64,000 nucleotides of DNA, taken from NCBI GenBank assembly GCA_964016885.1, contig OZ024743.1, positions 171,120,001 to 171,184,000 on the forward strand, read 5' to 3'. This DNA comes from Eledone cirrhosa. Its lineage: Eukaryota. The notes under the pieces are model-generated. The model searched no databases, had not been told where the DNA came from, and was given only the letters and a program-made list of their open reading frames with translations. Position 1 is the stretch's first letter. Each line of letters begins with the position of its first letter. Positions 5,958 to 38,349 of this stretch are shown here, in pieces. The translations under genes and the position numbers were made by a program.

Positions 5958-6202
5958 CTATTGTTACATTGTATGTCTACGCCATCTTCATTTAGTCTGT
6001 TTATATATTTATTTATTTATTTGTTTGTTTGTTTATTTTATTTTGTCTTCTTTGCGCATGCGTCTGCGTGTGTGTATAGTGTTTCATTTGATGTGTGTTC
6101 GTGATTGGGTGACTGTGTATCGGTTAATGTATTCTATCTTTACTAGTGTGTGTTTATATGTGTTTTTTGTTATTGTGCTTGTGTATGTATTTATTTATTT
6201 AT

Positions 6203-9200
6203 TTATACTTCTCTTAGGTCGGTGTTGTTTGTTTGGGTGTTGTTGTTATTCCATTCATTCTTTCTGTTTAGTCTTGGCCTTCTAAGTTCTATTTCACTGG
6301 CCTCTCTGATTTGCCTATCTGCTGGGTCATTTCTATATTTAGATATTATTATAATTTCTATGTTGTCTATGTTACCGTCGTGTTGTTGTCTGGCATGTTC
6401 GTATAGTACTGAACCGTTTTTCGTCCTTTTAGTTCCCCCCAGTGTTGGTCTATCCTTTCACCTAGGCTACGAGCTGTCTCGCCTATGTATGTTGTAGTCA
6501 TGTTTCTGCAAGTACCCTCTGTACATCTTATGCTATAGACTACGTTTATAGTTTTACAGTTTATCTGGGGGTTTACCTAACATATGATACATTTCCTATT
6601 AATACAGTGGGTTTTCTTAAAAGGGTAGGTTTTGCTGATCAGAGACTTTATGGTGGTTCTTGGCTTTTCTACCACCTTAATCTTTAAGTGGGTCTTTCTC
6701 AGGGCCTTTCTACACTGGTTAGCTAATTTCCCTCCCAGGGTAGCGTCCACAAACATGACACTCTGGTATCTCTGGTTGTCGTACCATGAGGTGGCTTTCC
6801 CTATCTTGTGTCTAGCCCTATCTAAGCTATTCCATGATTTTCTCCTGTATAATGGGCAAATTCCTTTCATGTCTAGTTCTATGAGGGTCTTATACTTCTC
6901 CATCGCTCCTTCGTATACTCTGACTCTGTCTCTTTGGTTGTAGCCAGAGAACTGCATGCGGTTGATGAAGTGTTGGATGTGTCTTTCCATTTCTGTTGGG
7001 TCACACATGCGGGACACATTCTTCATCACTCGTACCAAATCTGCGATCAGAATATTAAACTTAGCACTACTGAACATTGCTGAGTTTTGAGTATCAGGTA
7101 TTTGGAGGCCATGGGTTTAGCATAGTGTGAGTGGAGAATTTGGGCTCTCTCGTCTATAGTGTTAATCCAGAGTTCCGTGTCTAATACAGGTAGTCTATTG
7201 TTAGGGTGTTTGGAAGGGTAGTCGATAATTACAGTTATACTCTGGTGTATGGAATTAGCTATCTGCTGCATGCTTTTCATTGTGCTACGTTCTAAATCAA
7301 ACTTGGGTCCGTATAGCTTTGGTCCACCCAATCCACCTTCCCATGGGAGTCTTTTTTGCCATTGAGGTTATGGTGGGGGGTCTACCTCTTATAGGTCTAC
7401 TAGGGCAGAAACATGTAAGGTCATGGCTGTCTAGGTAGTCAGTGTCGTAGGTAAGTCTAAGTAGGAGGCCCAGTTCGTCTGTGTCGACGTCGCAGAACTC
7501 CACCTCACTCTCAATGATCATCTCCACAGATTTTTCCACAGCAAAATCAATGTTAATGGATGGGTACAGTGATACCGCATCCATGCTGCCTATTATGCAG
7601 TTGGATAGGTTCCTGTTTTTGTTGCACTCACTGATTCTGCTGAGGAGGTCCTCTGTACTGTCACATACATCTGGGGACATCTTGATTATGGAGCGTATAA
7701 CCATTGAGAGGAAGTAGGAGATCCTGTAGTTGCTAGCTATATTAGCTCCGCATACGGGTCTTGTTGGTGGTCCTGTTGTCGGGTCGTCGACTGTCTTGTG
7801 GTCTTTGCGGAGCCCATACAAGGGTGGTATGCCATTGTTAGACGCCTGGAAGTTGTTGGCAGTGCGTCTGCTTGGCTTTAGGATGTCAGTCCACATCATC
7901 ATGTGAGCGTTGAGGATTTTCTCTCTCCCATCATGTGTTTGCTGTGCAATTTCGCTCGTGTTGGTGATGTGGGTTTGTATAGCCTTGATGTAGTTCGGCA
8001 TGCTATCTATTGACATCCTACCAGACTTATCCGTGGGTAGACATACTACCTCACCATCCCTTGTGCGCTGCTTGAGGCTAACCAAGCCTTCTACAGGTTT
8101 CCTCCCATGTTGTTGGGCCTCTGGTCTGCTCTGTCTCTTAGTATACCGGTCTACTATTTGTCTAATCTTATTTCTAGCTCTGGTGAACTGTGCCTCTGTC
8201 TCGTGATCTATTTGTTGTGGTATGCAAACTCTTTTATTAAAGGGTAACCTCGTAGGATAGATATTACCCATCTTATATGTTTTGTCAGCTGGGTTGAAAA
8301 ATAGTTTCTCTAAGGGGTTGTCATTATATCTATCGTCATAGTTGTGTGTGTTGCTATTATTGTTATTATGGTGGTTGTTGTTGTTCCTATCATTAGCATT
8401 ATTATTATTGTTATGATTGCTAGATGTATTGTTGCTGTGATTGTTAGATGTATTGTTGTTATGATTGCTAGGTGTATTGTTGCTGTGATTGTTAGATGTA
8501 TTGTTGTTATGATTGCTAGATGTATTGTTGGTGTGATTGTTAGATGTATTGTTGTTATGATTGCTAGATGTATTGTTGTTGTGATTGTTGTTTATTTCAC
8601 CGTTATTGTTGTTGTTACTGTTATTTCTACCATTGTGGTTGTTACTTTTATTATGTTTCTTGTTTTTGTTGTGTCTATCATTAATGTTGCTACATGTATT
8701 ATTTCCATTATTACCACTGTGGTTATTGTTGTTGTTCGTATTGTTACCGTTATTACTACTGTGGTCGCTGCTGCTGTGTCTGTGGTTAATGTCTCTATTA
8801 TTATTATTATTATTGTGGTTGTTGTTGTTCTGTCTATCGCTAGTATTATTACCATTATTACTATTTCTCACTCTCCTGCTATTGTTATTGTTATGGCTGT
8901 TATTTCTATACTCAGAGTTATTGTTTATATTACTACTACCGTTATTATTGTTGTTGTTGTTTACTTTTGCATTGCAACGTATTTTTGTGAAACACTTTTC
9001 CAGCTCCGTTTTGCACTCAATAGGGTTAATCTTTTTGTAGATGGCAAATGTTGGTGGTAGCTGCAGGATTTGTTGTTCTTGTTCACCGATTAAAGTGTTC
9101 CCATAAATATTTACTGTGTGGTCATTGGTAAATTCTTCCGGTAGTTTTACATCAGTCATACGGATATTGTTGATGTTATCTGCGTATTTTTGAGAATATT

Positions 9201-9701
9201 CTATTTTCTTTTCTTGTAGTTTTTTCTTATTCATTCATTCTAATTTCTTATTGAAATGCCTATTGCATTCGTTTCGGGCGTATTTCGTTTCACGTCGGAT
9301 GACGCTCATGAAGTCATCCCTTTCGTTTGGTGTGGTGAGATTTTAGACTTCCTTACCGTTAATGCGTTTCTGTCTGTAAAGTTCGTTGACTTTTGCGTAT
9401 GTTGTTCTTTTCATATTAACTGTTATTGTGTGTTTTAGTCGTTCAGCTTGTGTTTTGTTCAATAATAAATGATTTACTTGTTTTGATATGTTTGTTGTGT
9501 ATATTTTGGAGGAAACACAGTGTTTTAAGAAGCGGATTTGTTCTGTTGTTATTGTAGTTTTTATATAACAGAAACAGTGTCTTTCAATAACCTTTCAGCT
9601 TGGCACAAGCTAGTGCCATAACGGCGATGAATTAGTTTTGCAAGGTTTTTTATATGAAATCGTGTGTCGAAACAAATATTGTTATACTTGGGGAGAGTCA
9701 T
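6203..9701 (-). pseudogene. PLE polyprotein (N-terminal domain, Asn-rich tract, RT, Cys-rich linker, GIY-YIG), disrupted
   Basis: The ATG at 9701 in the pLTR gives MTLPKYNN...LIHRRYG; then IRFLKHC, TDKSG, LYGLRKDHK, MDAVSLYPSI, LPVLD, CxxxxCxxC, YIGETARS and LNRKNEW. There are stops and frameshifts, and a ~290-bp deletion at ~7305 removes GAAIG and YVDD. Confidence 0.88.
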
Positions 9702-9999
9702 ATTTGTGTAATATTGCCAGAATTAATAACAGAACACACTCACTGTTTGGTTGGTTTTCGCTTTTCGCTTCTGTGTCTTTTATATCGGTAATCTAATTTA
9801 TTCGGTCCTCAATGTTGCCATTGACTGACCAACGGTCAAAAATAATACAGATACAATATAGACACAAACACATATATATAGTTTATCAAAGTTCTTTCGT
9901 TGCACATCTGCAACAACATCAGTGGTGCTATTGTTTCCTCCCATTACATTGTATGTCTACGCCATCTTTATTTAGTCTGTTTATATATTTATTTATTTG

Positions 10000-12660
10000 T
10001 GAGGAAACCTGTAGAAGGCTTGGTTAGCCTCAATCAGCGCACAAGGGATGGTGAGGTAGTATGTCTACCCACGGATAAGTCTGGTAGGATGTCAATAGAT
10101 AGCATGCCGAACTACATCAAGGCTATGCAACCCCACATCACCAACACGAGCGAAATTGCACAGCAAACACATGATGGGAGAGAGAAAATCCCCAACGCTC
10201 ACATGATGATGTGCACTGACATCCTAAAGCCAAGCAGACGCACTTCCAACAACTTCCAGGCGTCTAACAATGGCATATCACCCTTGTATGGGCTCCGCAA
10301 AGACCACAAGACAGTCGACGACCCGACAACAGGACGACCAACAAGACCCTTATGCGGAGCTAATATAGCTAGCAACTACAGGATCTCCTACTTCCTCTCA
10401 ATGGTTATACGCCCCATAATCAAGATGTCCCCAGATGTATGTGACAGTAGAGAGGACCTCCTCAGCAGAATCAGTGAGTGCAACAAAAACAGAAACCTAT
10501 CCAACTGCATAATAGGCAGCATGGATGTGGTGTCACTGTACCCATCCATTAACATTGATTTTGCTGTGGAAAAATGTGTGGAGATGATCATTGAGAGTGA
10601 GGTGGAGTTCTGCGACGTCGACACAGACGAATTGGGCCTCCTACTTAGACTTACCTACGACACTGACTACCTAGGCAGCCATGACCTTAGACGTTTCTGC
10701 CCCAGTAGACCCATAAGAGGTAGACGCCCCACCATAACCTCAATGGCAAAAAAGACTCCCATGGGAAGGTGGATTGGGTGGACCAAAGCTATATGGACCC
10801 CCCAAAACAATGATCAGGTAAGAAAAATGGTCGCACATGCAATAGGGGCTAGTATCAAAACTACGCTAAAGGGCCACATATTCAAGTTCAACGAGATGAT
10901 CTATACCCAAAATGAGGGAGCAGCCATTGGCGTCAGCATAGCTGGTGATGTTGCCAACCTTTTTATGGTATGGTGGGAAAGGAGAGTTAAAGATCTCCTT
11001 AATGAGAGCTCCATAGACCTCATCATGTACTCTCGTTACGTAGACGATATCAATATAGTTATAAGAACATCCCCACGAGAGAGCACTAACAAGTTTGATT
11101 TAGAACGTAGCACAATGGAAAGCATCCAGCAGATAGCTAATTCCATACACCAGAGTATAACTGTAACTATCGACTACCCTTCCAAACACCCTAACAATCG
11201 ACTACCTGTATTAGACACGGAACTCTGGATTAACACTATAGACGAGAGAGCCCAAATTCTCCACTCACACTATGCTAAACCCATGGCCTCCAAATACCTG
11301 ATACTAAAAAACTCAGCAATGTCCAGTAGCGCTAAGTTTAATATTCTGATCGCAGATTTGGTACGAGTGATGAAGAATGTGTCCCGCATGTGCGACCCAA
11401 AAGAAATGGAAAGACACATCCAACACTTCATCAACGGCATGCAGTTCTCTGGCTACAACCATAGAGACAGAGTCAGAGTATACGAAGGAGCTATGGAGAA
11501 GTATAAGACCATCATAGAACTGGACATGAAAGGAATTTGCCCATTATACAGGAGCAAATCATGGAATAGCTTAGATAGGGCTTGACATAAGATAGGGAAA
11601 GCCACCTCATGGTACGACAACCAGAGATACCAGAGTGTCATGTTTGTGGACGCTACCCCTGGAGGGAAATTAGCTAACCAGTGTATAAAGGCCCTGAGAA
11701 AAACCCACTTAAAGATTAAGGTGGTAGAAAAGCCAGGAACCACCATAAAATCCCTGATCAGCAAAACCTACCCTTTTAAGAAAACCCACTGTACTAATAG
11801 GAAATGTATCATATGTAAGGTAAACCCCCGGATAAACTGTAAAACTATAAACGTAGTCTATAGCATAAGATGTACAGAGGGTACTTGCAGAAACATGACT
11901 ACAACATACATAGGCGAGACAGCTCGTAGCACAGGTGAAAGGATAGACCAATACTGGGGGGAACTAAAAGGACGAAAAAACGGTTCAGTACTATACGAAC
12001 TTTCCAGACAACAACACGACGGTAACATAGACAACATAGAAATTAGAATAATATCTAAACATAGAAATGACCCAGCAGATAGACAAATCAGAGAGGCCAG
12101 TGAAATAGAACTTAGAAGGCCAAGACTAAACAGAAAAAAATGAATGGAATAACAACACCCAAACAAACAACACTGACCTAAGAGAAGTATAAATAAATAA
12201 ATACATACACAAGCACAATAACAACAAACACATATAAACACACACTAGTAAAGGTAGAATACATTAACCGATACACAGTCACCCAATCATGAACACACAT
12301 CAAACAAAACACTATACACACACGCAAACGCATGCGCAAAGAAGACATAATAAAATAAACAAACAAACAAATAAATAAATAAATATATAAACAGACTAAA
12401 TAAAGATGGCGTAGACTTACAATGTAACGGGAGGAAACAATAGCACCACTGACGTTGTTGCAGATGTGCAACGAAAGAACTTTGATAAACTATTTATATG
12501 TGTTTGTGTCTATATTGTATCTGTATTATTTTTGACATTGAGGACCGAATAAATTAGATTACCGATATAAAAGACACAGAAGCGAAAAGCGAAAACCAAC
12601 CAAACAGTGAGTGTGTTCTGTTATTAATTCTGGCAATATTACATAAATATGACCCTCCCC
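10000..12660 (+). mobile_element. PLE copy 2, 5'-truncated, inverted relative to copy 1
   Basis: RT with MDVVSLYPSI, GAAIG, YSRYVDD; in-frame TGA at 11583-11585; GIY-YIG (VVYSIRC...YIGETARS) in ORF 11640-12143; the 3' UTR runs into (TA)n. Confidence 0.92.
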
Positions 12661-13660
<1,000 letters not shown>

Positions 13661-13720
13661 AAGTTGAAAAAAAATGAAAACGAAATTTCATTTCTCACTC
13701 TTAGTATGGCACTTACTTAA

Positions 13721-13775
13721 ATGTAAGTATGTATGTATACGTACATACATATATGTATACAGACGTACAGTAGCA

Positions 13776-13834
<59 letters not shown>

Positions 13835-14333
13835 TCAGGTACACATACATATATGCACGCATCAGTTTAGCGGACGCTTATTATAACGCCGCTTTTTTCG
13901 TTTGTCAACAAACTGAACAGTCTGAATTTATGCCATACGGTGTTAAGGCAACCACGTCACCTTTTTGTTCAACACTGACACAGGAACGATGTACTAGTTT
14001 CAACCTTGTTAGCTATCATCAGCACCGTTTACCCATCTGCCAGATAGTTGAACGTTCGAAAGTATATACTTTCCTTATGAAAGTATATGCATAAGGAAAG
14101 TATTTACTTTCGAACGTTCAACTATCTGGCAGATAGGTAAACGGTGCTGATGATAGCTAACAAGCTTGAAACTAGTACATCGTTCCTGTGTCAGTGTTGA
14201 ACAAAAAGGTGACGTGGTTGCCTTAACACCGTATGGCATAAATTCAGGCTGTTCAGTTTGTTGACAAACGAACAAAGCGGCGTTATAATAAGCGTCCGCT
14301 AAACTGATGCGTGCATATATGTATGTGTACCTG

Positions 14334-14364
<31 letters not shown>

Positions 14365-14420
14365 GCATACTACTGTACGTCTGTATACATATATGTATGT
14401 ATGTATACATACATACTTAC

Positions 14421-14422
<2 letters not shown>
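13721..14422. mobile_element. Fold-back non-coding hammerhead element (arms ~13721-14079 and 14090-14422, 10-nt loop)
   Basis: Near-perfect reverse-complement arms, flanked by TA-rich microsatellite. Confidence 0.8.
14140..14184 (+). ncRNA. Type I minimal hammerhead ribozyme (mirror copy 13985-14029 on minus)
   Basis: AACGGTG-CTGATGA-t-AGCT aaca AGCT-t-GAAAC-TAGT-A-CATCGTT; GUA site; palindromic stem III ACTAGT. Confidence 0.8.
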
Positions 14423-14606: not shown

Positions 14607-14975
14607 GTCAATACACATTTTTTTCCATTTCTCCGAGGGTTCTTATCCCCACTATCAGGCTAAATAATTTCTTTAATTTCTTTAGTCAAAATACGGCGAT
14701 AGCTTACATTTCAAATAATTTCAAACACACTCGCTGTAACGAAAATATTCTTACTTGACATTAAGTTTATAGCTTCTAATTTGAATGGAAAAAGACGGGT
14801 GATGTGTAAATGGTAGCACAGTGGTCCGGATAACCAAAGATGTGGGTTCGACTCCCATGTAAGTCAATACTCATCTTTTTCCATTTCTCCGAGGGTTCTT
14901 AACCCCACTATCAGGCTAAATGATTTCTTTAATTTCTTTAGTCAAAATACGACGATAGCTTACATTTCAAATAAT
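14607..14975 (+). repeat. ~256-bp tandem unit (1.4 copies) containing a tRNA-like Pol III module at ~14797-14859
   Basis: Direct repeat starts at 14607 and 14863; A-box-like TGTGTAAATGG, stem TGGT/ACCA, B-box GGTTCGACTCC with T-stem GTGGG/CCCAT; flanked by (TA)n. Confidence 0.65.
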
Positions 14976-15563: not shown

Positions 15564-16460
15564 GTCCCTAGACGCTTTTTGCGTTTAGGGATATATACTT
15601 TATTATTATTATCCTCCTCTTGGTCGAGATAAAATTTGGTCGTTCTGACTGCTGCTATTTATAGTGGTAGTAGACTGACCTCCCTGTTTCTGCTTCTATC
15701 TTTACACCCGGCACTGGACAGAATTGCTTCCACATCAGTCATTCTCATCTCAGGAACAATTTTGAATAGCGCCAGTTCGTAATTTGAACACGGGAATTTT
15801 ATATTCTCCGAGTGAAAAGACCCTTCTGACGAGAGTTTATCTTTTCAATGGAAGGCCGCAAGGACTGTCCATTTATTTTGGAGACTCGAAACCGATTCGG
15901 TAAAGGTACCCATATTGAGTACAGTGAATCTTTTAAAATTTATTTTGAAACTTTTTCTTATTTGCTAAACCTTGATTATATATGTTCAGGCTCGTTAATT
16001 TATTAACCTGCCATTGAACCACATTAGCATATGGTTGGACAATGCATGTGTCCCTAGACGCTTTTTGCGTGTAGGGATATATACTTTATTACTATTATTC
16101 TCCTCTTGGTCGAGATAAAATTTGGTCGTTCTGACTGCTGATATTTATAGTGGTAGTAGACTGACTTCCCTGCCTCTGCTTCTATCTTTACACACGGCAC
16201 TGGACAGAATTGCTTCCACATCATTGATTCTCATCTCCGGAACAATTTTCAATAGCGCCAGTTCGTAATTTGAACTCGGGAATTTTATATTCTCCGAGTG
16301 AAAAGACCCATCTGACGAGAGTTTATCTTTTCAATGGAAGGCCGCAAGGACTGTCCATTTATTTTTGAGACTCGAAACCGATTCGGTAAAGGTAACCATA
16401 GTGAGTACAGTGAATATTTTAAAATTTATTTTGAAACTTTTTCTTATTTGCTAAACCTTG

Positions 16461-16465
<5 letters not shown>
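15564..16465 (+). repeat. 486-bp tandem unit (~1.85 copies) with one hammerhead per unit (retrozyme/PLE pLTR) in (TA)n
   Basis: Units start at 15564 and 16050; CTGACGA at 15826 and 16312. Confidence 0.85.
15822..15906 (+). ncRNA. Type I hammerhead ribozyme (second copy ~16308-16392)
   Basis: CCTT-CTGACGA-GAGTTT...AGACTC-GAAAC-CGATTCGGT-A-AAGG; GUA site. Confidence 0.8.
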
Positions 16466-16529
<64 letters not shown>

Positions 16530-16531: not shown

Positions 16532-16727
16532 CGAAGGAAATGTGGTAAGGAACCAGGTGGACCATAACGCACCAAAGTACTCAATACTTGAGGTAGTAGA
16601 GTGGGTAATAGGAACCAGTAAGACCCCGACAGCTGAGCTCAAGCCGTTTCGACGGCTAATTCTGGACAGAGTCCAGAATTAGCCGTCGAAACGGCTTGAG
16701 CTCAGCTGTCGGGGTCTTACTGGTTCC

Positions 16728-16730
<3 letters not shown>
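16530..16730. repeat. pLTR-like fragment ending in a perfect 60-bp-arm palindrome (16608-16730, loop AGA); related fragment at ~15388-15528
   Basis: Read directly; contains the 3' half of a hammerhead (GAAACGGC...GCYGT-C). Confidence 0.75.
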
Positions 16731-16759: not shown

Positions 16760-16761
<2 letters not shown>

Positions 16762-19553
16762 AGTTTTGCGAGGTTTTTGATATGAAATCGTGTGTCGAAA
16801 CAAATATTGTTATACTTGGGGAGGGTCATATTTGTGTAATATTGCCAGAATTAATAACAGAACACACTCACTGTTTTGTTGGTTTTCGCTTTTCGCTTCT
16901 GTGTCTTTTATATCGGTTAATTTAATTTATTCGGTCCTCAATGTTGCCATTGACTGACCAACGGTCAAAAATACAGATACAATATAGACACAAACACATA
17001 TATATAGTCTATCAAAGTTCTTTCGTTGCACATCTGCAACATTGTCAGTGGTGCTATTGTTTCCTCCCGTTGCATCGTATGTCTACGCCATCTTTATTTA
17101 GTCTGTTTATATATTTATTTATTTGTTTATTTTTTTGTCTTCTTTGCGCATGCGTTTGCGTGTGTGTATAGTGTTTTGTTTGATGTGTGTTCGTGTTTGG
17201 GTGACTATGTATTTGTTAATGTATTCTATCATTACTAGTGTGTGTTTATTGTTATTGTGCTTGTGTATGTATTTATTTATTTATCTATTTATTTATACTT
17301 CTCTTAGGTCAGTGTTGTTTGTTTACGTGTTGTTGTTATTCCATTCATTTTTTCGGTTTAGCCTTGGCCTTCTAAGTTCTATTTCACTGGCCTCTCTGAT
17401 TTGCCTATCTGCTGGGTCATTTCTATGTTTAGATATTATTCTAATTTCTATGTTGTCTATGTTACCGTTGTGTTGTTGTCTGGCATGTTCGTATAGTACT
17501 GAACCGTGTTTCGTCCTTTTAGTTCCCCCCAGTGTTGGTCTATCCTTTCACCTATGCTACGAGCTGTCTCGCATTTGTATGTTGTTGTCATGTTTCTGCA
17601 AGTACCCTCTGTACATCTTATGCTATAGACTACGTTTATAGTTTTACAGTTTATCCGGGGGTTTACCTTACATATGATACATTTCCTATTAGTACAGTGG
17701 GTTTTCTTAAACGGGTAGGTTTTGCTGATCAGGGATTTTATGGTGGTTCTTGGCTTTTCTACCACCTTAATCTTTAAGTGGGTCTTTCTCATGGCCTTTC
17801 TACACTGGTTAGCTAATTTCCCTCCAGGGGTAGCGTCCACAAACATGACACTCTGGTATCCCTGGTTGTCGTACCATGAGGTGGCTCTCCCTATCTTATA
17901 TCTAGCCCTATCTAAGCTATTCCATGAATTGCTCCTGTATAATGGGCAAATTCCTTTCATGTCCAGTTCTATGAGTGTCTTATACTTCTCCGTGGCTCCT
18001 TAGTATACTCTGATTCTGTCTCTTTGGATGTAGCCAGAGAACTGCATGCGGTTGATGAAGTGTTGGATGTGTCTTTCCATTCCTGTTGGGTAGCACATGC
18101 GGGACACATTCTTCATCACTCGTACCAAGTCTGCGATCAGAATATTAAACTTAGCACTACTGGACATTGCTGAGTTTTTGAGTATCAGGTATTTGGAGGC
18201 CATGGGTTTAGTATAGTGTGAGTGGAGAATTTGGGCTCTCTCGTCTATAGTGTTAATCCAGAGTTCCGTGTCTAATACAAGTAGTCTATTGTTAGGGTGT
18301 TTGGAAGGGTAGTCGATAGTTACAGTTATACTCTGGTGTATGGAATTAGCTATCTGCTGGATGCTTTCCATTGTGCTACGTTCTAAATCAAACTTGTTAG
18401 TGCTCTCTTGTGGGGATGTTCTTATTACTATATTGATATCGTCTACATAACGAGAGTACATGATGAGGTCTATGGAGCTCTCATTAAGGAGATCTTTAAG
18501 TCTCCTTTTCCACCATACCATAAAAAGGTTGGCAACGTCACCAGCTATGCTGACGCCAATGGCTGCTCCCTCATTTTGGGTGTAGATCTTCTCGTTGAAC
18601 TTGAATATGTGGCCCTTTAGGATAGTTTTGATACTAGCCCCTATTGCATGTGCGACCATTTTTCTTACCTGAACATTGTTTTGGGGGGTCCGTATAGCTT
18701 TGGTCCACCCAATCCACCTTCCCATGGGAGTCTTTTTAGCCATTGAGGTTATGGTGGGGATTCTACCACTTATGGGTCTACTGGGGCAGAAACGTCTAAG
18801 GTCATGGCTGTCTAGGTAGTCAGTGTCGTAAGTAAGTCTAAGTAGGAGGCCCAGTTCGTCTGTGTCGACGTCGCAGAACTCCACCTCACTCTCAATGATC
18901 ATCTCCACAGATTTTTCCACAGCAAAATCAATGTTAATGGATGGGTACAGTGATACCGCATCCATGCTGCCTATTATGCAGTTGGATAGGTTCCTGTTTT
19001 TGTTGCATTCACTGATTCTGCTGAGGAGGTCCTCTGTACTGTCACATACATCTGGGGACATCTTGATTATGGGGCGTATAACCATTGAGAGGAAGTAGGA
19101 GATCCTGTATTTGCTAGCTATATTAGCTCCGCATACGGGTCTTGTTGGTGGTCCTGTTGTCGGGTCGTCGACTGTCTTGTGCTCTTTGCGGGACCCATAC
19201 AAGGGTTGTATGCCATTGTTAGACGCCTGGAAGCTGTTGGCAGTGCGTCTGCTTGGCTTTAGGATGTCGGTCCATATCATCATGTGAGCGTGGAGGATTT
19301 TCTCTCGCCCATCATGTATTTGCTGTGCAATTTCGCTCGTGTTGGTGATGTGGTTTTGCATAGCCTTGATGTAGTTCGGCATGCTGTCTATTGACATCCT
19401 ACCAGACTTATCCGTGGGTAGACATACTGCCTCACCATCCCTTGTGCGCTGCTTAAGGCTAACCAAGCCTTCTACAGGTTTCCTCCCAAGTTGTTGGACC
19501 TCTGGTCTGCTCTGTCTCTTAGTATACCGGTCTACTATTTGTCTAATCTTATT
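16760..19553 (-). mobile_element. PLE copy 3 (RT ORF 18000-19466, GIY-YIG remnant, pLTR), 5'-truncated
   Basis: Same family as copy 1, with YVDD intact; premature stop at ~18000. Confidence 0.92.
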
Positions 19554-20772
19554 TCAGAGTATACGAAGTAGCCACAGAGAAGTATAAGACCCTCATAGAA
19601 CTGGACATGAAAGGAATTTGCCCATTATACAGGAGAAAATCATGGAATAGCTTAGATAGGGCTTGACATAAGATAGGGAAAGCCACCTCATGGTACGACA
19701 ACCAGAGATACCAGAGTGTCATGTTTGTGGACGCTAACCCTGGAGGGAAATTAGCTACCCAGTGTAGAAAGGCCCTGAGAAAGACCCACTTAAAGATTAA
19801 GGTGGTAGAAAAGCCAGGAACCACCATAAAATCCCTGATCAGCAAAACCTACCCTTTTAAGAAAACCCACTGTACTACTAGGAAATGTATCATATGTAAA
19901 GTAAACCCCCGGATAAACTGTAAAACTAGAAACGTAGTCTATAGCATAAGATGTACAGAGGGTACTTGCAGAAACATGACAACAACATACAAATGCGAGA
20001 CAGCTCGTAGCATAGGTGAAAGGATAGACCAACACTGGGGGGGAACTAAAAGGACGAAAAAACGGTTCAGTACCATACGAACATTCCAGACAACACGACG
20101 GTAACATAGACAACATAGAAATTAGAATATCAAAACATAGAAATGATCCAGCAGATAGGCAAATCAGAGAGGCCAGTGAAATAGAACTTAGAAGGCCAAG
20201 GCTAAACAGAAAAAAATGAATGGAATAACAACACCCAAACAAACAACACTGACCAAAGAGAAGTATAAATAAATAAATACATACACAAGGACAATAACAA
20301 CAAACACATATAAACACACACTAGTAAAGATAGAATACATTAACCAATACACAGTAATCCAATCACGAACACACATCAAACAAAACACTATACACACACG
20401 CAAAGAAGACAAAAAAAATAAAAATAAATATATAAACAGACTAAATAAAGATGGCGTAGAAATTACAATGCAACGGTAGGAAACAATAGCACCACTGACG
20501 ATGTTGCAGATGTGCAACGAAAGAACTTTGATAGTCTATATATATGTGCTTGTGTCTATATTGTATCTGTATTTTTGACCGTTGGTCAGTCAATGGCAAC
20601 ATTGAGGACCGAATAAATTAAATTAACCGATATAAAAGACACAGAAGCGAAAACCAACCAAACAGTGAGTGTTTCTGTTATTAATTCTGGCAATATTACA
20701 CAAATATGACCCTCTCCAAGTATAACAATATGTTTCGACACACGATTTCATATAAAAACCTCGCAAAACTAA
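19554..20772 (+). mobile_element. PLE copy 4 (linker, GIY-YIG, pLTR), inverted relative to copy 3
   Basis: Homologous to ~11470-12660 and extends to GCAAAACTAA + (TA)n. Confidence 0.9.
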
Positions 20773-20788: not shown

Positions 20789-21710
20789 TCATCATCATCG
20801 TTTAACGTCCATCTTCCACTCTAGCATGGGTTTGGACGGGAATTTTCCCACTTGAGGCAAGATTGGTTGTCTTGCTCGTATAGGACTTCTGGCGGATTTT
20901 CTACGGCTGGATGCCCTTCCTAACACCAACCACGTTTACAGTGTGGACAGGGAGGTCTTTATCGTGTTACCTACACGGCCACATTACAGCGTGGACTGTG
21001 TTTTTTTGTCGTGACACCTACACGACCTCATCTGTTTCGGACTGGATGTTGTGGTACCAACATAACTTTACATTGGAAGGGTGGGGGTAGTGGGACGGGG
21101 TGTATTTTTGTTAGAGGTGCCTACTGACTGTAGGTTTCACTTTGTACTTAGGCAAGGCGGGTCTTCTGTATAACTGTGTAGCGCCAAATATCTCGGTCCA
21201 GTGACATTGTCTTGGAGAGGTGTAACTGTGTGAGGTCGGAATTTATCAAGTCGTCCCAGGTTTTTCTGGGTCTGCCTACTCCGTGGCTACAGTCTATTTT
21301 TATCGCCCTGCACTTTTTTATACAGCTGTGGTCTTTCATGCACATCACGTGACCGTACCAACGTAGTCTTCTCTCGAGTAAATAACATCTGATCCCTCTT
21401 ATTCCTAATTTATCACTTAGTTCATTTATGCTTTGCCGTTCACGTATATTACTATTACACATCAAGCGGAGCATGGAAGCTTCGTTTCTCTCCTGTCTGC
21501 GTATATCCTCTGCACACAATGCCCAGGTCTCACTGCCATGTAACATTGCTGTTCGTATGCAGGCATCATACAGCCTCCCTTTCATTTTTAGAGAGAACCC
21601 TTTAGTGGCCAATAACGGTATAAGCTCTCTGAACTTTTTCCATCCCGTTCTGACTCTAGCTACTGTACTTTCAGAGCACCCTCCCCCACTACTGATTTTG
21701 TCACCCAGGT
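20789..21710 (-). mobile_element. 5'-truncated RTE-clade LINE 3' end with (GAT)n tail
   Basis: AMLHGSETW, RRLRWYGHV and GRPRKTW motifs; 3' UTR matches 29776-30155. Confidence 0.9.
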
Positions 21711-21727
21711 ATATATATGTATGTATG

Positions 21728-21776
<49 letters not shown>

Positions 21777-22038
21777 ATATATATGTATATATATATATAT
21801 ATATGTATGTATATATATATGATTAAGTTAAAGTATACATCTACATATGTATACGGAAGTATTAGTATGCATATAAATACACACATGTATACATATGTAC
21901 ATGTACTGAGTTTTTCACTAGACACTTTACAGTGAGTGTCAGCTAGTCTGTACGTAACCACACAGACGGACCGGGTTTTAGAGTCATACGAGTTTTCAAG
22001 GAAACACATTTCCTCTATTCGCCAGAGGGCCAGACAGG

Positions 22039-22083
22039 AATATTGGACTAGTTTCGATGTTATTACATCTCATCAGCAATATT
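22039..22083 (-). ncRNA. Type I minimal hammerhead ribozyme
   Basis: Reverse complement of the 22575-22619 motif. Confidence 0.88.
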
Positions 22084-22574
22084 TACCCATCTTCCGGCTT
22101 CTCTGGAGAATTGTAAAAGCACATATCGTTATATGCTTTTTCTATGAAAATTAGTAGTGGGTAGACTAATTTGCATAGAACGTGAGTCATTGTACGCACC
22201 GGTTCAGCGGAAACGATAAAAACAAATAACGAAACGAAATTAAATTTCGTTTCGCTTCTAACTCACTTTTGTATGACTGACGCTTAAACAATTAAGTTAA
22301 AGTGTACATCTACATATGTATACGGAAGTATTAGTATGCATATAAATACACACATGTATACATATGTACATGTACTGAGTTTTTCACTAGACACTTTACA
22401 GTGAGTGTCAGCTAGTCTGTACGTAACCACACAGACGGACCGGGTTTTAGCTGAACCGGTGCGTACAATGACTCACGTTCTATGCAAATTAGTCTACCCA
22501 CTACTAATTTTCATAGAAAAAGCATATAACGATATGTGCTTTTACAATTCTCCAGAGAAGCCGGAAGATGGGTA

Positions 22575-22619
22575 AATATTGCTGATGAGATGTAATAACA
22601 TCGAAACTAGTCCAATATT
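22575..22619 (+). ncRNA. Type I minimal hammerhead ribozyme
   Basis: AATATTG-CTGATGA-GATGT aata ACATC-GAAAC-TAGT-C-CAATATT; fully canonical core, GUC site after 22612. Confidence 0.9.
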
Positions 22620-23043
22620 CCTGTCTGGCCCTCTGGAGAATAGAGGAAATGTGTTTCCTTGAAAACTCGTATGACTCTAAAACCCGGTCCGTCTGTGTGG
22701 TTACGTACAGACTAGCTGACACTCACTGTAAAGTGTCTAGTGAAAAACTCAGTACATGTACATATGTATACATGTGTGTATTTATATGCATACTAATACT
22801 TCCGTATACATATGTAGATGTACACTTTAACTTAATTGTTTAAGCGTCAGTCATACAAAAGTGAGTTAGAAGCGAAACGAAATTTAATTTCGTTTCGTTA
22901 TTTGTTTTTATCGTTTCCGCTGAACCGGTGCGTACAATGACTCACGTTCTATGCAAATTAGTCTACCCACTACTAATTTTCATAGAAAAAGCATATAACG
23001 ATATGTGCTTTTACAATTCTCCAGAGAAGCCGGAAGATGGGTA

Positions 23044-23088
23044 AATATTGCTGATGAGATGTAATAACATCGAAACTAGTCCAATATT
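23044..23088 (+). ncRNA. Type I minimal hammerhead ribozyme
   Basis: Identical motif 469 nt downstream; site after 23081. Confidence 0.9.
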
Positions 23089-23357
23089 CCTGTCTGGCCC
23101 TCTGGCGAATAGAGGAAATGTGTTTCCTTGAAAACTCGTATGACTCTAAAACCCGGTCCGTCTGTGTGGTTACGTACAGACTAGCTGACACTCACTGTAA
23201 AGTGTCTAGTGAAAAACTCAGTACATGTACATATGTATACATGTGTGTATTTATATGCATGCTAATACTTCCGTATACATATGTAGATGTACACTTTAAC
23301 TTAATTGTTTAAGCGTCAGTCATACAAAAGTGAGTTAGAAGCGAAACGAAATTTAAT

Positions 23358-23505
23358 TAACAAATCAACATCATTGGATACCATCAGAGTTTTCCTTCTA
23401 GAATTCTGCCTTGACAAAGGCTAAGGAGAGATGACCCCTTAGCCTTTGTCAAGGCAGAATTCTAGAAGGAAAACTCTGATGGTATCCAATGATGTTGATT
23501 TGTTA
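23358..23505. repeat. Perfect ~69-bp-arm hairpin with 10-nt loop
   Basis: TAACAAATC...GGCTAAGG agagatgacc CCTTAGCC...GATTTGTTA. Confidence 0.9.
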
Positions 23506-25889: not shown

Positions 25890-28800
25890 CAGGGTGTTCC
25901 AAAAGTATATGTCACATTATGACATTTTATATCTTAGTAACTATTGAGGATATCAAAACAAGTTTTATTTAAACCCTCTCACCAACTACCTCGTAAAATG
26001 CCCCATTTGTTTTTCTAAAATAACAATCTCGTTTGTTTAATTTTGGCCGAAAATTCTAGGATTTATAAAATGGCCTCCTTGTCCCTCTTAATCTTTAACC
26101 CCCCCCCCCCCATATCGTATACGCGCCTGCTGGTTCACCCTTTCAATCACTCCCTTCTCTCACCAAATATAAATAAACCTGTTATGAGGTACGAATCTCA
26201 GAATTTGTCAATGCTTATTAATGGTCAGACCTGCTCACTCTTCTGCGAAATGTAATGTAAAATGCCATTTTTTCTTGTCTCTCCAGCCTATCGGTCCATT
26301 CATTCATATATCCGTATCATCGCCCAGAATCCAATCTTTTGCTCTTCCTCAATGCTATTCTCTAATTCTGTCTGGTTGTTCTAAATAATCTTCTTGTATT
26401 TTAAAATCCCATTATTCGCTTATTACTGTTATATGCTTGTCCAATTATGCCCAAAATTTGAAGATTTTATTTAAACCTTCTTGCTAACTACCCCATACCC
26501 ATCCCACCCGCCCCCACTCTCCACCATTATTATTTGGACCAATCATAAGTCAGCGGCCTATGCTATCACTTCTCCTGGTTGCTTTTCGATATGATGGATG
26601 TACTAAAGAATTCTGGAGAGTCTGAAAAATCTGGACACTCAGTGACAATGCCAAAGATAAAGACAAATTCACCTCATGCTGCCAGACGAAAAGGCAAGGA
26701 CTCCTCCTCTTTGTTTCAGCCGCGGATGGCCAACATAACCCCAACCCCCCTCCCCAACCACCAAACGCAATCCAAAACTTCAGAGTTGGTACCATGAATG
26801 TAGGCACCTTAAAAGGTCGCTCTAACGTGGTTGTAGAAATGCTTGAACGTAAGGAGGTTGATGTTTGCTGTATCCAAGAGACCAGGTGGGTCTGCTAGAT
26901 TCATTGTGGGTAAAAAACGATGCTATAAGCTTTTCTGGGTGGGAAATGACAATGGGCTGGGTGGGGTAGGAATCATGTTAGCAGAAAAATGGGTAGATAA
27001 GATAATAGACGTAAATAGAGTGAACGACAGAATAATTAAAATAAGACTTGTCCTAAATAGAACTACTGTGACAGTAATATCTGTGTATGCACCCCAATCC
27101 GGACTGCCTGGTGCTATAAAAGACAGATTCTATGAGACATTGATGCTCACTACCTCCCAAATAACCAACAGTGACTACATAATTATTACTGGCGACCTAA
27201 ATGGTCACGTTGGACAACATTGTGACGGCTATGACGGAATCCATGGAGGCTATGGGTTGGGTACTAGAAATGAGGAAGGCTTCAGAATCCTGGAATTCTG
27301 TGACGTAAATAACCTAACTATCTGTAACACTAACTTCAAAAAACGAGACAATCACTTGATCACCTATAGATCAGGGGAACACACCAGTCAGATAGATTAT
27401 ATCCTTACCAGAAGACGTGATAGAGTGTCTGTTGTAAACACTAAATCCCTCTCCCATGAAGAATGCACCTCCCAACATAGACTCATAGTCAGGACAAGAC
27501 GTACTCGACAACAGAGGAGGACTATCCCCAGGAGAAAAATATGGAAGCTAAAGGACCCCACAGCCAGTAATAAATTTAAAAGCATATTACTTGATGCTTT
27601 CGACAGTAAGGAAGAGCAATTAGAGTTTTACAATATAGAGGAACAGTGGAAATTCCTGAAAGCTAACGTGCTGAAGGCGGCAGATGAAGTCTGTAGCTGG
27701 AGCAGGCCTATAGGCAGGAGGAGAGTAACATGGTGGTGGAACAGTAAGGTGGAGGAGTCAATTAAGGCCAAAAAGCAGGATTGGAAAGTATGGCGGGATG
27801 GGGGAAGTAGAGAAGACTATCAAGTGGCCAGGAGGGAAGCTAGGAGACAAGTGTACTTCGCAAGAAGGGAAGCAGAGGAAAGAAAGTTCAAGCATGTTCT
27901 ACAACGCGAGGACCAAAAACATGAGGTGTTCAGGATTGCTAGGCAATGTGTCAAAGAAAACCAAGATATTGTCGGGGAGGAGTTTGTACTTAATGACGCT
28001 GATTAGAAGGTAGCTTGGAAGTGTCATTACGAAAGGCTACTAAATGAGGAGAATAAATGGGAGAAAGACAGTCTCCCCCACATCGATCCAATAGAGGGAC
28101 CAGCAGGGCTAGTTGAAGGTAGTATAATAAGTAAGGCAATCAAAGATATGAAGACGGGTAAGGCGGCTGGGCCTTCGGAAATAGTTGCTGAAATGCTGAA
28201 AGCATCTGGAACGGTGGGACACACTCACTATGGTCACCCGGATAGTAAACCAAGTCATACAGAATGGGGCCGTTCCGAAGGACTGGCATAGCAGCATCAT
28301 CATTAACTGCTACAAGGGTAAAGGAGATGCCCTAGATCGGGGTAACTATAGAGGCATTAAATTAATCGACCAGGTCATGAAGGTCACAGAAAAAGTAATA
28401 GCGCAACTAATCAGAGAACAAATTGATCTAGATGAAATGCAGTTCGGGTTTGTGTCAGGTAAAAGTACCACAGACGCTCTTTTCATTGTACGACAACTAC
28501 AGGAGAAGTATCTAGCTAAAAGTAAACCCCTATACTTAGCTTTTGTTGACTTGGAGAAAGCCTTTGACAGAGTCCCCCGTTCCATTATCTGGTGGTCTCT
28601 TAGAAAACTAGGTGTTGATGAATGGCTTGTGAGAGCTATACAAGCCATGTATAAAGAAACAGTCAGCAAGGTTAGAATTAACAACGAATATAGTGAAGAG
28701 TTTAGCGAAAAAGTTGGTGTTCATCAGGGCTCCGTTCTTAGCCCCCTACTATTTATTATTGCCCTTCAGGCTATAACAGACGAGTTCAAGACCGGCTGCC

Positions 28801-31354
28801 CATGGGAACTCCTATATGCAGATGATCTAACGCTCATAGCTGACTCAATGGCTGAACTAGAGAAGAAATTCCAAACATGGAAGCATGGCCTAGAATCAAA
28901 AGGCCTTAAAGTTAACTTGTCTAAGACTAAAGTTCTAGTTTGTAGGAAGGAAAAAAGGGCACCGGTCCCATCTGGGAAATGGCCATGCTTAGTGTGTGGG
29001 AAAGGAGTAGGCAGAAACTCCATTTTATGTTCTAAATGCAAAGTATGGGTGCATAAAAGATGTAGTGGTATCACAGGTAAGTTAACTAAAAATATAGATT
29101 TTATATGTGGCCGGTGCTCTGGTGCAATAAGTAGCAGCAAGTGCTCACAGAATACTAGCTCATTCCATTGCACAGATGGTTCTATAGAAATAGTGGAGAC
29201 CTTCCGTTACCTGGGTGACAAAAACAGCAGTGGGGGAGGGTGCTCTGAAAATGCAGTAGCTAGAGTCAGAACGGGATGGAAAAAGTTCAGAGAGCTTATA
29301 CCACTATTGGCCGCTAAAGGGTTCTCTCTAAAAATGAAAGGCAGGCTGTATGATGCCTGCCTGCATACGAACAGCAATATTACATGGCAGTGAGACCTGG
29401 GCATTGTGTGCAGAGAATATACGCAGACTGGAGAGGAACGAAGCTTGCATGCTCCACTGGATATGTAATAGTAATATATGTGAACGGCAAAGCATAAACG
29501 AACTAAGGGAGAAATTAGGAATAAGAGGGATCAGATGTTGTTTACTCAAGAGAAGACTGCGTTGGTACGGTCACGTGATGCGCATGAAAGACGACAGCTG
29601 TATAAAAAAGTGCAGGGCGATAAAAATAGACGGTAGCCACGGAGTAAGCAGACCCAGAAAAACCTGGGACGACTTGATAAATTCAGACCTCACACACTTA
29701 CACCACTCCAAGACAATGTCACTGGACCGAGATCTTTGGCGCTACACAGTAATACAGAAGACCCGCCTTGCCTAAGTACAAAGTGAAACCTACAGTCAGT
29801 AGGCACCTCTAACAAAAATACACCCCTGTCCCACTACCCCCACCCGATCCACACCATCCCCTTCAATGTGAAGTTATGTTGGTACCACAACATCCAGTCC
29901 GAAACAAATGAGGTCGTGTAGGTGTCATGACAAAAAAACACACAGTCCACGCTGTAATGTGGCCGTGTAGGTAACACGGTAAAAACCTCCCAGTCGACAC
30001 TGTAAACTTAGTTGGTGTTAGCAAGGGCATCCAGCCATAGAAAACCCGCCAGACAGTCCTATACGAGCAGGACAACCAATCTTGCCTCAAGTGGGAAAAC
30101 TCCCGTCCAAACCCATGCAAGCGTGGGAGATGGACGTTAAACGATGATGATGATGAATTTACATTTCCTGAAAGTTAATATTTTAAAGTGTCTGTACAAA
30201 AAATTTGAACACAAATGTGCAAGAAATTAATTTATTATTAGATGTGTTCAATGTGATTGCCACAGGTTACACGACACACATCCAAATGACAATCCATTTC
30301 TTCACAAACACGACCTAGCATTGCGTTGTCAATGGTTGCAAAGGCTTCAGTTATTTGAGTCTTCTGGTCATCCACGACTCTGAGAAGGGGAGTACGCACA
30401 CCAGGTCTTTTACATACTACCAGAGGAAGAAATCACATGGCATGAGGTCTGGGGACCTAGGGGACCATCACAAGAGCACGCGATCAGTTTGTCCGGAATG
30501 TCCGATCCATCAGTCAGAGTGGTGTTCAGATACTTTCTAACTCTAAGCCTCCAGTGAGGTGGTGCCTCAGCCTGTTGGAAAATGAAGTCTTTTCTTCATG
30601 CAATTCATCCATCAACCAGTTTTGCAGCATGGCAAGATAGACTTTACCATTGACTGTTTCTCCATAGAAGAATGGTTCATACACACATTTCTTTGACATG
30701 GCACAGAACACGTTTACTTTAGGGGAATCTCACACATGTTCAAGAGTTACATGAGGTTATGCGTGTGATATGCTTGTCAACTTTGTCACTTAAGTAGAAG
30801 GTCGCCTCATCACTGAAAACAAGCCAATCATCAAATTCGTCATCTTCTAACTTCTCCAGCATATCTGTGCAAAATTCATAGTGAGCTGGTTTATCAGTGT
30901 CCAACTGTTGAACCAATTGCAGCCTGTAATGTGTCATATGCAGTAGTCTCCTTAAAATGTGCCAAACAGTTGTTGATGGGAGCTGAATTTCTCAACTGGC
31001 TCTTTTGACTGATTTCTGGGGGTTCCACTGGAAGGCATTTTGAACTTGTTCAACCGTATCATCTGAAGATGAGGGGCATCCTGTTTTCTTTGCCGGGCAC
31101 AAACACCCCTCCTCCTTAAATTTTGCCAATTCAAAATGGAACGTCTGTCTGGTGGCTGCTTTGTAAACTGTGTATGAAATTTGCGTTGAACACGTGTCCA
31201 TGACTCAGTTTTAGTGAATTCTAGGAAGCAAAACGACTTTTCTTGTTTTGTGAACAGCATTACTGGATCTGAAAAGAGACAAAAGAAAAATGGTACCATT
31301 TGTAGTTCATGATATATGAGTTCTTTGAATGTGACATACTTTTGGAACACCCTG
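25890..31354 (-). mobile_element. Tc1/mariner DNA transposon (transposase remnant ~30250-31260) interrupted by an RTE LINE
   Basis: TIRs CAGGGTGTTCCAAAAGTAT..GTCACATT at both ends with TA TSDs (25888-89 and 31355-56); VFSDEATF motif and SPDL-type motif in decayed frames. Confidence 0.88.
25971..30155 (+). mobile_element. Near full-length RTE-clade LINE (APE, RT, PHD finger), frameshifted
   Basis: VGTMNVGTL, GDLNGHVG, SQIDYIL; NYRGIKL, FVDLEKAFDRV, GVHQGSVLSPLLF, LLYADD; (GAT)n tail; a short ATTT repeat at both junctions. Confidence 0.92.
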
Positions 31355-34825: not shown

Positions 34826-37800
34826 CATCATCATCATCATTATCGTTTAACGTCCATCTTCCACGCTAGTATGGGTTAGATGGGAGTTGTCCCAATTTGA
34901 GGCAAGGTTGGTCGGGTGACCGTGTCATGCTCATATAGGACTGACTGGCAGGTGTACTACGGCTGGATGCGCTTCCTAACACCAACCACATTTACAGTGT
35001 GGACTAGGAACTTTTTACCATGTTACCTACACGGCCACATTACAGCGTGGACTGTGGTTTTTTGTCGTGACACCTACACAATTTCAATCTCATTTATCTC
35101 ATTTATTTGGACTGGATGTTATGGTACCAACTTTACAGAGAAAGGGTGGTGTTGGTGGGAGTAGGGGTAGCGGATTGGGGTGTATATTTGGTTAAGAGGT
35201 GCCTACTGACTGTAGGTTTCGCTTTGTACATAGGCAAGGCGGGTCTTCTGTATTACTGCGTGGCTCCAAAGACCTTGGTCTAGTGACATTGTCTTAGAGA
35301 GGTGCAAGTGTGTAAGGTTGGAATTTATCAAATTGTCCCAGGTATTTCTGGGTCTACCTACTCCGTAACTTCCATCAATTTTGATCGCCCTGCACTTTTT
35401 TGTGTCAGCTGTCGTCTTTCATGCGCATCACGTGACCATACCAATATAGTCTTCTCTCAAGTAAACAGCATCTGATCCCTCTTATTCCTAATTTCTCAAT
35501 TAGTTCATTTATGTTTTGCCGTTCACATATATTACTATTACATATCCAACAGAGCATGCATGCTTCGTTCCTTTCCAGTCTGCGCAGGTCCTCTGCACAC
35601 AATGCCCATGTCTCACTGCCATGTAGCATTGCTGTTTGTATACAGGCATCATACAATCTGCCTTTCATTTTTAGAGAGAAACCTTTAGCGGCCAATAGTG
35701 GTATAAGCTCTCTGAACTTTTTCCATCCCGTTCTGACTCTGGCTACTGTACTTTCAGAGCACCCTCCACCACTGCTGATTTTGTCACCCAGGTAACAGAA
35801 AGTGTTCACTATTTCTATAGAACCATCTGGGCGATAGAAGGAGCTAGTATCCTGTGGGCACTTGTTACTTATTGAACCTGAGCATTGGCCACATATAAAA
35901 TCTACGTTCTTAGATAGCTTACCTGTGATCCCACTACATCTTTTATGCACCCATACTTTGTATTTGGGGCATAAAATGGAATTTCTGCCTACTCCTTTCC
36001 TACACACTGAGCATGGCCATTTCCCAGAGGGGACCTGTGCCCTATTTTCCTTCCTACATACTAGAACTTTAGTTTTGGACAAGTTAACTTTAAGGCCTTT
36101 TGATTCTAGGTCATGCTTCCATGTTTGGAATTTCTTCTCTAGTTCAGCCATAGAATCAGCTATGACAGTTAGATCATCTGCGTATAGGAGTTCCCATGGG
36201 CATCCGGTTTTAAACACCTCTGTTATAGCCTGAAGGATAATAATAAATAGGAGGGGGCTAAGGACAGAGCCTTGATGAACAACTTTTACACTAAATTCTT
36301 CACTATATTCATTGTTAATTCTAACCTTACTCACCGTTTCTTTATACATGGCTTGTATAGCTCTCACAAGCCATTTATCTACACCTAGTTTTCTAAGAGC
36401 CCACCAGATAATGGAGCGGGGGACTCTGTCAAAGGCTTTCTCCAGGTCTACAAAAGCTAAGTAGAGGGGTTTACTTTTAGCTAGGTACTTCTCCTATAGT
36501 TGTCGTGCAAGAAAAAGAACGTATGTGGTATTTTTACCTGACACTAACCCAAACTGCATTTCATCTAGATCTATTTGCTCTCTGATTAGTTGTGCTCTAA
36601 CACTTTCTGTGACCTTCATGACCTGGTCAACTAACTTAATGCCTCTATAGTTTCCCCTATCTAGAGCATCCCCTTTACCCTTGTAGCAGTTAATGATGAT
36701 GCTGCTACGCCAGTCTTTTGGTATGACCTTATTCTGTATTACTTGGTTTACTATCCGAGTGACCATAGTATGTCCCACCATTCCAGATGCTTTCAACATC
36801 TCAGCAACTATCTCCGAAGGCCCAGATACCTTGCCTGTCTTCATATCTTTGATTGCCTTACTTATTATACTACCTTTGACTTACACCGCTGGTCCTTCTA
36901 TTGGATCGATTTGGGGCAGACTATCTTTTTTCCATTTATTCTCCTCATTTAGTAGTCTCTTGTAGTGACACTTCCAGGCTATCTTCTTATCAGTTTCAGT
37001 GACGGCAAGTACACCATTATCATTATGGACACACTTCTCCCTGACAATATCACGGTTTTCCTTGACATATTGTCTAGCTATCCTGAACACCTCACGTTTT
37101 TGGTCCTCACGTAGAACATGCTTGAACTTTCTATCCACTGCTTCCCTTTTTGCAAAGTACACTTGATAGTGTTCTCTACTTCCCCCATCCTTTCATACTT
37201 TCCAAGCCTGCTTTTTGGCCTTGATTGACTCCTCCACCTTACTGTTCCACCACCAAGTTACTCTCCTCCTGCCAATAGGTCTGCTCCAGCCACAGATTTT
37301 ATCAGTCGCTTTCACCAGGTTAACTTTCATGAATTCCCACTGTTCCTCTATATTGTACGTCTCTAATTGCTCTTCCTTATTGTCAAAAGCATCAAGTAAT
37401 AAGCTTTTAAATTTGTCACTGGCTGTGGGGTCCTTCAACTTCCATATTCTTCTCCTCAAGGTAGTCCTCCTCTGTTGTCGAGTATGTTTATTCCTGACTA
37501 TGAGGTCACTAACTACCAGGCTATGTTGGGAGGTGCATTTAGTGTTTACAACAGACACTTTGTCATGTCTTCTAGTAAGGATATAATCTATCTGGCTGGC
37601 ATTCTCCCGTAATCTATAGGTGATCAAGTGATTTTCTCGTTTGTTGAAGTTTGTGTTACAGATAGTTAGGTTATTAGCATCACAGAATTCCAGGATTCTG
37701 AAGCCTTCCTCATTTTTAGTACCAAAGCCATAGCCTCCATGGATCCCATCATAGCCATCACTATGTTGTCCAACGTGACCATCTAGGTCGCCATCAATAA

Positions 37801-38341: not shown

Positions 38342-38349
38342 CCTTAGCT

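Follow-up and report, generated by a model that had tools for sequence, protein, structure and literature searches.

Non-LTR retrozymes of metazoans are recognised by type I hammerhead ribozymes in at least two consecutive tandem units, by a non-coding unit of a few hundred nucleotides with a GC content below 50%, and by a highly self-paired circle in which the hammerhead stems are formed. Further marks are the lack of an LTR, PBS or PPT, dispersal in many copies, self-cleavage, and linear as well as circular monomer RNA in vivo. Their units measure 150-450 bp in PMC7229834 and 51-972 bp in bioRxiv 10.64898/2026.07.22.740005; the unit described here has 469 nt. The animal retrozyme model that we follow is laid out in these two sources, where mobilisation of the elements by PLEs has so far been argued from co-occurrence and from similarity to pseudo-LTRs (pLTRs). 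Two kinds of hammerhead motif have to be kept apart: the canonical metazoan motifs have a helix I of about 6 bp, a helix II of 4 bp and a helix III of 1-2 bp with a palindromic loop, whereas the minimal motifs of PLEs have a helix II of 7-8 bp, a helix I of 4-5 bp and one additional unpaired base ahead of stem II (PMC4209133). The hammerheads of axolotl HHR_Amex1 and of the newt satellite type, as described in PMC7229834, share with our array a 1-bp helix III with a palindromic tetraloop and perform better as a dimer. Their units are 330-350 nt long, as opposed to 469 nt here, and the likeness is one of design.

The insertion anatomy of the locus has its closest counterpart in the EN+ PLEs. 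Their insertions are described as partially tandem, with a neighbouring inverted copy that is truncated at its 5' end, a tail of 30-40 bp on one side and a bias towards microsatellites (PMC8557442). With the purified anole PLE (PAc), both strands of AT-rich targets are cut and extended, and synthesis begins at two sites within the RNA that lie on either side of the tail, one of them in a stem-loop (PMC11167929).

Organization of the array

The window is the whole stretch of Eledone cirrhosa DNA that we analysed, 64 kb in length. Positions 21822-23358 had been described in a first-pass annotation as a young tandem array of 469-nt retrozyme units with minimal hammerheads on both strands. The feature is genuine and the observation stands: the region consists of 3.3 copies of one non-coding 469-nt unit, in two arms placed head-to-head (Table 1; unit position 1 lies just past the predicted cleavage site). 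In the plus arm the period is 469 nt (1.9 copies, 99% matches), while the minus arm, read in reverse complement, agrees with 22677-23305 at 627 of 629 positions (99.7%). The period is thus as first described, but the feature is not a single tandem array, since an arm of 1.9 units is joined to an inverted arm of 1.3 units. The arms meet by their 5' ends with an overlap of 1 nt at 22450. Each is longer than one unit, their 5' stops fall at unrelated points, and between them they cross three cleavage sites without leaving a scar.

Table 1. Features of the hammerhead array and its flanks, in positions of the 64-kb window
Feature	Position	Strand	Remarks
(TA)n microsatellite	21710..21821	.	adjoins short end (unit 224); likely target
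Inverted 5'-truncated arm, 629 nt	21822..22450	-	unit 65-469 then 1-224; short 3' end at 21822
Type I hammerhead 3, in inverted arm	22022..22106	-	core 22076-22046; predicted cut after 22046
Partial-tandem arm, 909 nt	22450..23358	+	unit 307-469, 1-469, 1-277; long 3' end at 23358
Type I hammerhead 1, extended stem I	22552..22636	+	core 22582-22612; predicted cut after 22612
Cleavage-to-cleavage monomer, 469 nt	22613..23081	+	predicted circRNA; circular fold
13-bp AU-rich stem-loop, complete internal copy	22871..22899	+	spans long end point; candidate reverse-transcription start signal
Type I hammerhead 2	23021..23105	+	core 23051-23081; predicted cut after 23081
53-nt tail on one side, unit 225-277	23306..23358	+	at right end, missing at left; ends within the stem-loop's loop
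Right-flank DNA duplicated as a perfect 69-bp inverted repeat, 10-nt loop	23358..23505	.	adjoins long end

The unit copies vary at only three sites (unit 25, 180 and 211; about 0.2%), each variant being confined to one copy. The GC content is 36.7%, and stretches between stop codons reach 84 codons at most. This bears out the description of the units as near-identical and non-coding, and the repeat unit is likely young. No RT/GIY-YIG ORF of an autonomous PLE is present in 21822-23358, and membership among the autonomous PLEs was rejected because this ORF is missing. ARAGORN reported no tRNA gene. The unit has one locus within the window.

As a comparison of words, 44 words sampled from the unit were matched against the 24 sequencing runs listed. 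Words of the unit occur in 18 of these runs. No RNA data set is listed among them, which speaks neither for nor against expression. At least half of the words are present in five runs (3 studies, 3 organism labels), one of which may be the source itself, and the share is at least 0.23 in 11 of the 24 (7 studies), with the source animal possibly among them; seven runs with a share below 0.2 were left unused. These matches bear on the idea that the structure arose at the DNA level, by local tandem duplication and fold-back inversion, or is a mis-assembled palindromic repeat. Arms that are 99.7% identical beside a 100% hairpin would fit such an origin, and structures of this kind are reported to trouble assemblers (PMC8557442). 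We nevertheless regard it as very improbable, given the five runs just mentioned, the three sites at which the unit copies differ, and the recurrence of the same two relative end positions in a sister element that is 63% identical to the unit and whose own arms are 98% identical.

Hammerhead motifs

A motif scan of the window returned four motifs, three of which lie in 21822-23358 and are identical to one another. Each combines the CUGAUGA core, GAAA, a 7-bp stem I, a 5-bp stem II, the palindrome ACUAGU and a GUC triplet, so that the core, stem I, palindrome and GUC sites at 22612 and 23081 listed in the first pass were all recovered. When drawn in the canonical way, stem II has 4 bp with a 6-nt loop and helix III has 1 bp; stem I continues, after a 2-nt bulge, with seven more pairs and two further helices. 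With stem I of at least 7 bp and stem II of at least 5 bp, 100 block-wise dinucleotide shuffles of the window gave no match, and a loose scan gave a mean of 0.07 matches per shuffle versus four in the real sequence. Rfam at gathering score has no match for the array; the family Hammerhead_HH9 matches all three copies at 31.8 bits (E 9.3e-5), where 52 bits would be needed to reach the gathering score. Sub-gathering Rfam matches to miRNAs were dismissed as generic hairpins.

By the helix lengths given in PMC4209133 the motif classifies as a canonical type I hammerhead with a weak palindromic helix III. Assignment to the minimal hammerheads of PLEs was rejected, and with it the label "minimal" used in the first pass: helix II has 4-5 bp, helix I has 7 bp plus the extension, and the extra base is missing. 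The presence of hammerheads on both strands also needs to be qualified. All three motifs are real matches and identical, but the one on the minus strand belongs to the inverted arm rather than to the unit's own antisense strand. A viroid-like RNA with ribozymes in both polarities was therefore rejected, as the sole minus-strand match is an inverted copy of the sense motif. Self-cleavage by the hammerheads of the array is predicted.

The same kind of scan in metagenome contigs gave 16 loci, none of which is similar to the 469-nt unit in BLASTN at E 1e-4. On visual inspection, roughly half of them are fortuitous matches within bacterial ORFs and the others represent different hammerhead families. 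A tighter motif had no match in viral contigs and none in prokaryote genomes. One of the other families is represented by a head-to-head hammerhead pair at 3108-3206 of locus L009 and is also found in L001-L003 and L008; locus L011 contains two identical hammerheads 592 nt apart (253-882).

Folding predictions and classification

Folded as a circle, the monomer reaches -154.3 kcal/mol with 70% of its bases paired (z -10.5), and none of 100 shuffles was as stable. The predicted pair probabilities are 0.61-0.97 for stem I and 0.9-1.0 for stem II, and the tail hairpin is predicted to form too. High stability is likewise predicted for the antisense circle (z -8.0), so part of this signal comes from plain inverted repeats. 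Eight stretches, with 30 shuffles each, served for comparison: two were other hammerhead units, and six lacked a tandem hammerhead unit. The latter six span z -0.3 to -2.6, the 3' UTR of a PLE from the window (z -1.2) being among them.

With a unit of 469 nt, a GC content below 50%, type I hammerheads in consecutive tandem units and a predicted circle that is highly self-paired with its hammerhead stems formed, the array is to be filed, on the criteria of sequence applied here, under the metazoan non-LTR retrozymes. Sequence and folding thus support the retrozyme identity proposed in the first pass. An inverted arm, a one-sided tail and a cephalopod host set it apart from the retrozymes as presented in PMC7229834 and bioRxiv 10.64898/2026.07.22.740005.

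The preference for dimers that had been invoked for this hammerhead is borne out by the modelling. In the plus-arm RNA, the double hammerhead lies 5.8 kcal/mol and two single hammerheads lie 14.8 kcal/mol above the MFE, which makes the double form better by about 9 kcal/mol. The MFE structure itself mis-pairs the hammerhead core, and even the double hammerhead is uphill by the 5.8 kcal/mol. A plus-strand read-through RNA is predicted to fold back on itself over 629 bp, in which case hammerhead 2 would lose all of its stems and hammerhead 1 would be kept in the loop, and in the minus-strand read-through RNA stem I would be lost. As read-through RNA would bury a ribozyme, only transcripts that begin at or past the junction could release the monomer. 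Release of a 469-nt circRNA from this locus, as first suggested, is therefore disfavoured for read-through transcripts in these models, and the copy at hand is probably a product rather than an established source of circles.

Ends of the array and the insertion scar

The units of the array had first been described as circularly permuted; random permutation of the ends was rejected, and the main anatomical clue, which had been missed, is that the ends match the scar of a PLE insertion. A partial tandem lies next to an inverted, 5'-truncated copy. A tail on one side only separates two fixed 3' ends at a stem-loop, although at 53 nt it is longer than the published 30-40 nt, and the left target is (TA)n. 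The right junction (unit 277) is AT-rich and sits beside the 69-bp hairpin rather than in (TA)n. This inverted duplication of flanking DNA was possibly made during insertion. We found no target-site duplication at the array junctions. According to the accounts in PMC8557442 and PMC11167929, the array has in common with the EN+ PLEs, including anole PAc, the partial tandem, the inverted truncated copy, the one-sided tail ending in a stem-loop, the AT-rich or microsatellite target and a hammerhead upstream of the tail. It is unlike them in that it has no RT/GIY-YIG ORF, in the length of the tail and in its canonical rather than minimal hammerhead, and its stem-loop is AU-rich where that of the PLEs is AC-rich. 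A sigma-70 scan is not relevant for animal DNA, and the "terminator" that it reported is the stem-loop of the tail. To the left, a truncated LINE copy (21148-21709) borders the (TA)n stretch.

The same anatomy is found in neighbouring elements. At about 13662-14422 lies a sister element that shares 63% identity with the 469-nt unit over 278 columns. It forms a head-to-head palindrome in (TA)n, whose arms are identical at 236 of 241 positions and are each shorter than one unit. Its hammerheads, at 14147(+) and 14022(-), have a GUA triplet, and it resembles HHR_Amex2 in the U-U at the base of stem II (PMC7229834). The left arm is longer by about 59 nt (counted by eye) at the homologous place, where a hairpin is found. 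In the comparison of unit and sister, 93% of the cells pair, and in five of 19 pairs both partners differ. As only two families are compared, on four distinct rows, the covariation shuffle values are not probabilities. The letters of the core, the GGUA bulge and the UAAYAA loop II are unchanged, two pairs are broken in the sister element and a third is broken in one of its arms. A third element (about 57703-58259), which is unrelated, is also arranged head-to-head in (TA)n. It carries hammerhead-like motifs with a long stem II (57914-, 57958+), its arms are identical at 212 of 215 positions, and a tail of about 80 nt (counted by eye) is present on its right side.

The RT-encoding family and the origin of the unit

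The window also contains an RT-encoding PLE-like family (ORF 9882-12143 and others). Four ends of this family were inspected, with a fifth, partial copy left out; three are long and one is short, and each is followed by (TA)n. Long and short 3' ends are about 54 nt apart (counted by eye), so that the same pair of short and long ends is seen at 53 nt in the array, about 59 nt in the sister, about 80 nt in the third element and about 54 nt in the RT family. The RT of this family has a weak match to Pfam RVT_1, and its protein has no match to Pfam GIY-YIG. The best named relative of the protein comes from Octopus vulgaris (70% identity), which suggests an octopod host, and a search for a solved structure resembling the RT gave none. 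Its endonuclease region resembles the GIY-YIG piece of metagenome locus L013 (E 8e-7), and its RT piece resembles the RT of L013 too. The 3' UTR of the family contains a hammerhead-like core with a 6-bp stem II (12449+, 20495+, 9922-, 5952-), in which stems I and III are not clear. Broken copies of PLE-like RT/endonuclease genes, in both orientations, are clustered at 5660-12660 and 16760-20771.

Locus L013 (228-2163) carries a hammerhead with the same helix III segment, GAAACUAGU, about 425 nt behind an ORF for RT and GIY-YIG, which shows that motifs predicted to be hammerheads of this kind sit in PLE ends as well. An alternative explanation for the array is thus that the unit represents a pseudo-LTR belonging to an autonomous PLE and the locus a heavily 5'-truncated insertion, the tandem pLTRs stemming from the repeated ends of the parent. 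The equal tail lengths of the array and the RT-encoding family would agree with this, as would the report that, among 57 retrozyme families in Xenopus, 24 correspond to known elements, PLE ends in nearly every case (bioRxiv 10.64898/2026.07.22.740005). However, both arms run on beyond the long end point into identical sequence, and the stem-loop extends across that point. The repeat would therefore already have been present in the template, with no room for an ORF, and this favours a non-autonomous unit over a pLTR. In addition, the hammerhead is canonical and not of the minimal PLE type, the 3' UTR of the window's PLE is unstructured at the z given above, and the 469-nt unit has no nucleotide similarity to any PLE in the window, the RT family included. 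We consider derivation from a pLTR unlikely.

Proposed mechanism

Our main reading is that the array is a young non-LTR retrozyme that was inserted by PLE machinery acting in trans, to which we would give roughly three chances in four. As to how this came about, we tentatively propose, at somewhat less than even odds, that a Penelope protein read an ORF-less hammerhead circle from two fixed internal starts, and that the cDNAs rolled for more than one round and fused head-to-head. In this scheme a source array would be transcribed, neighbouring hammerheads would join through their ACUAGU palindromes to form a double hammerhead, and 469-nt monomers would be excised and closed by a host ligase of the RtcB type, as in the model of PMC7229834. 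The circle would be kept intact, since a lone hammerhead is predicted to be weak. The PLE protein would then nick both strands of an AT-rich target and prime two cDNAs at starts inside the RNA, at unit 224 and unit 277. The two cDNAs, each longer than one unit, would join head-to-head and leave the 53-nt tail on one side.

Reverse transcription around a circular template, which the first-pass annotation had put forward, fits the arms but is not distinguished from copying of an uncleaved linear multimer. In the latter case, the element and the PLE insertion would be the same, and the template would be RNA from a tandem source array whose hammerhead is slow or depends on a protein. Unprocessed RNA is the main substrate of the anole PLE, the hammerhead of which needed protein; cleavage was not required, and no reads ended at the cleavage site (PMC11167929). 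Among Xenopus retrozyme dimers, eight of nine failed to cleave in vitro (bioRxiv 10.64898/2026.07.22.740005), and neither arm of our array begins at a cleavage site. The three variants are all singletons and so are equally compatible with one monomer and with a homogeneous multimer. Against these points stands that the canonical hammerheads of coral, mussel and axolotl repeats are described as cleaving and giving circles (PMC7229834), and that a multimer is the very form predicted to self-cleave, in this instance with three cleavage sites crossed. The linear multimer is a possible template, albeit one we hold to be doubtful. When only the form of the template is asked about, we lean slightly towards the circle.

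Novelty and implications

The class of element is already known; what this locus adds is the two-start footprint of a PLE on a unit without an ORF, and its repetition in neighbouring elements. An ORF-less retrozyme with the PLE-specific two-start tail is a more direct footprint than the arguments from co-occurrence, and it names two candidate start sites. The length of the tail is, moreover, that of an RT-encoding PLE family a few kilobases away. If a Penelope protein did read the circle, then the scar would be evidence at the level of nucleotides that PLEs mobilise retrozyme circRNAs in trans, and the family together with a diverged sister that keeps the ribozyme and the tail stem-loop would define a cis signal. 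The family would also supply a substrate for work on the circle-template model in vitro, and octopods would be hosts to several such families at high density.

Octopods would join the hosts of retrozymes. In the giant squid genome, 235 hammerhead matches were counted (PMC6962438). Our search of openly available papers found no description of an octopod retrozyme or of a one-sided tail scar on a retrozyme, though the supplements of key papers may bear on this and may list cephalopods.

Other repeats in the window

Five hammerhead elements without an ORF are found in this 64 kb. Two of the repeats are tandems of 486-nt units that end in (TA)n. The first, at 15564-16470, has 1.9 copies at 96% identity with long-stem-II hammerheads at 15826 and 16312 (circle z -3.5), and the second, at 61898-62956, has 2.2 copies at 98% with hammerheads at 62302 and 62788 (circle z -7.6). 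The 5' end of the latter lies only about 10 nt past a predicted cleavage site, the position expected if a linear RNA had been cleaved and then copied to its end; this is a single case. A perfect short inverted duplication (60/60) adjoins an element end at about 16610-16730, like the one at 23358-23505 (69/69). Inverted arms of 629 nt, 97% identical, lie between AT microsatellites at 1264-2833, where the scans gave no hammerhead. A tRNA-like match at 14804-14858 scores 28.1 bits, as compared with an Rfam gathering score of 29, is not called as a gene by ARAGORN and is possibly the head of a SINE. An open RT frame of 1,091 codons extends over 54138-57413 (RVT_1 E 1e-29), and LINE copies with endonuclease, RT and PHD regions are present at 26837-29775 and 35405-38356.
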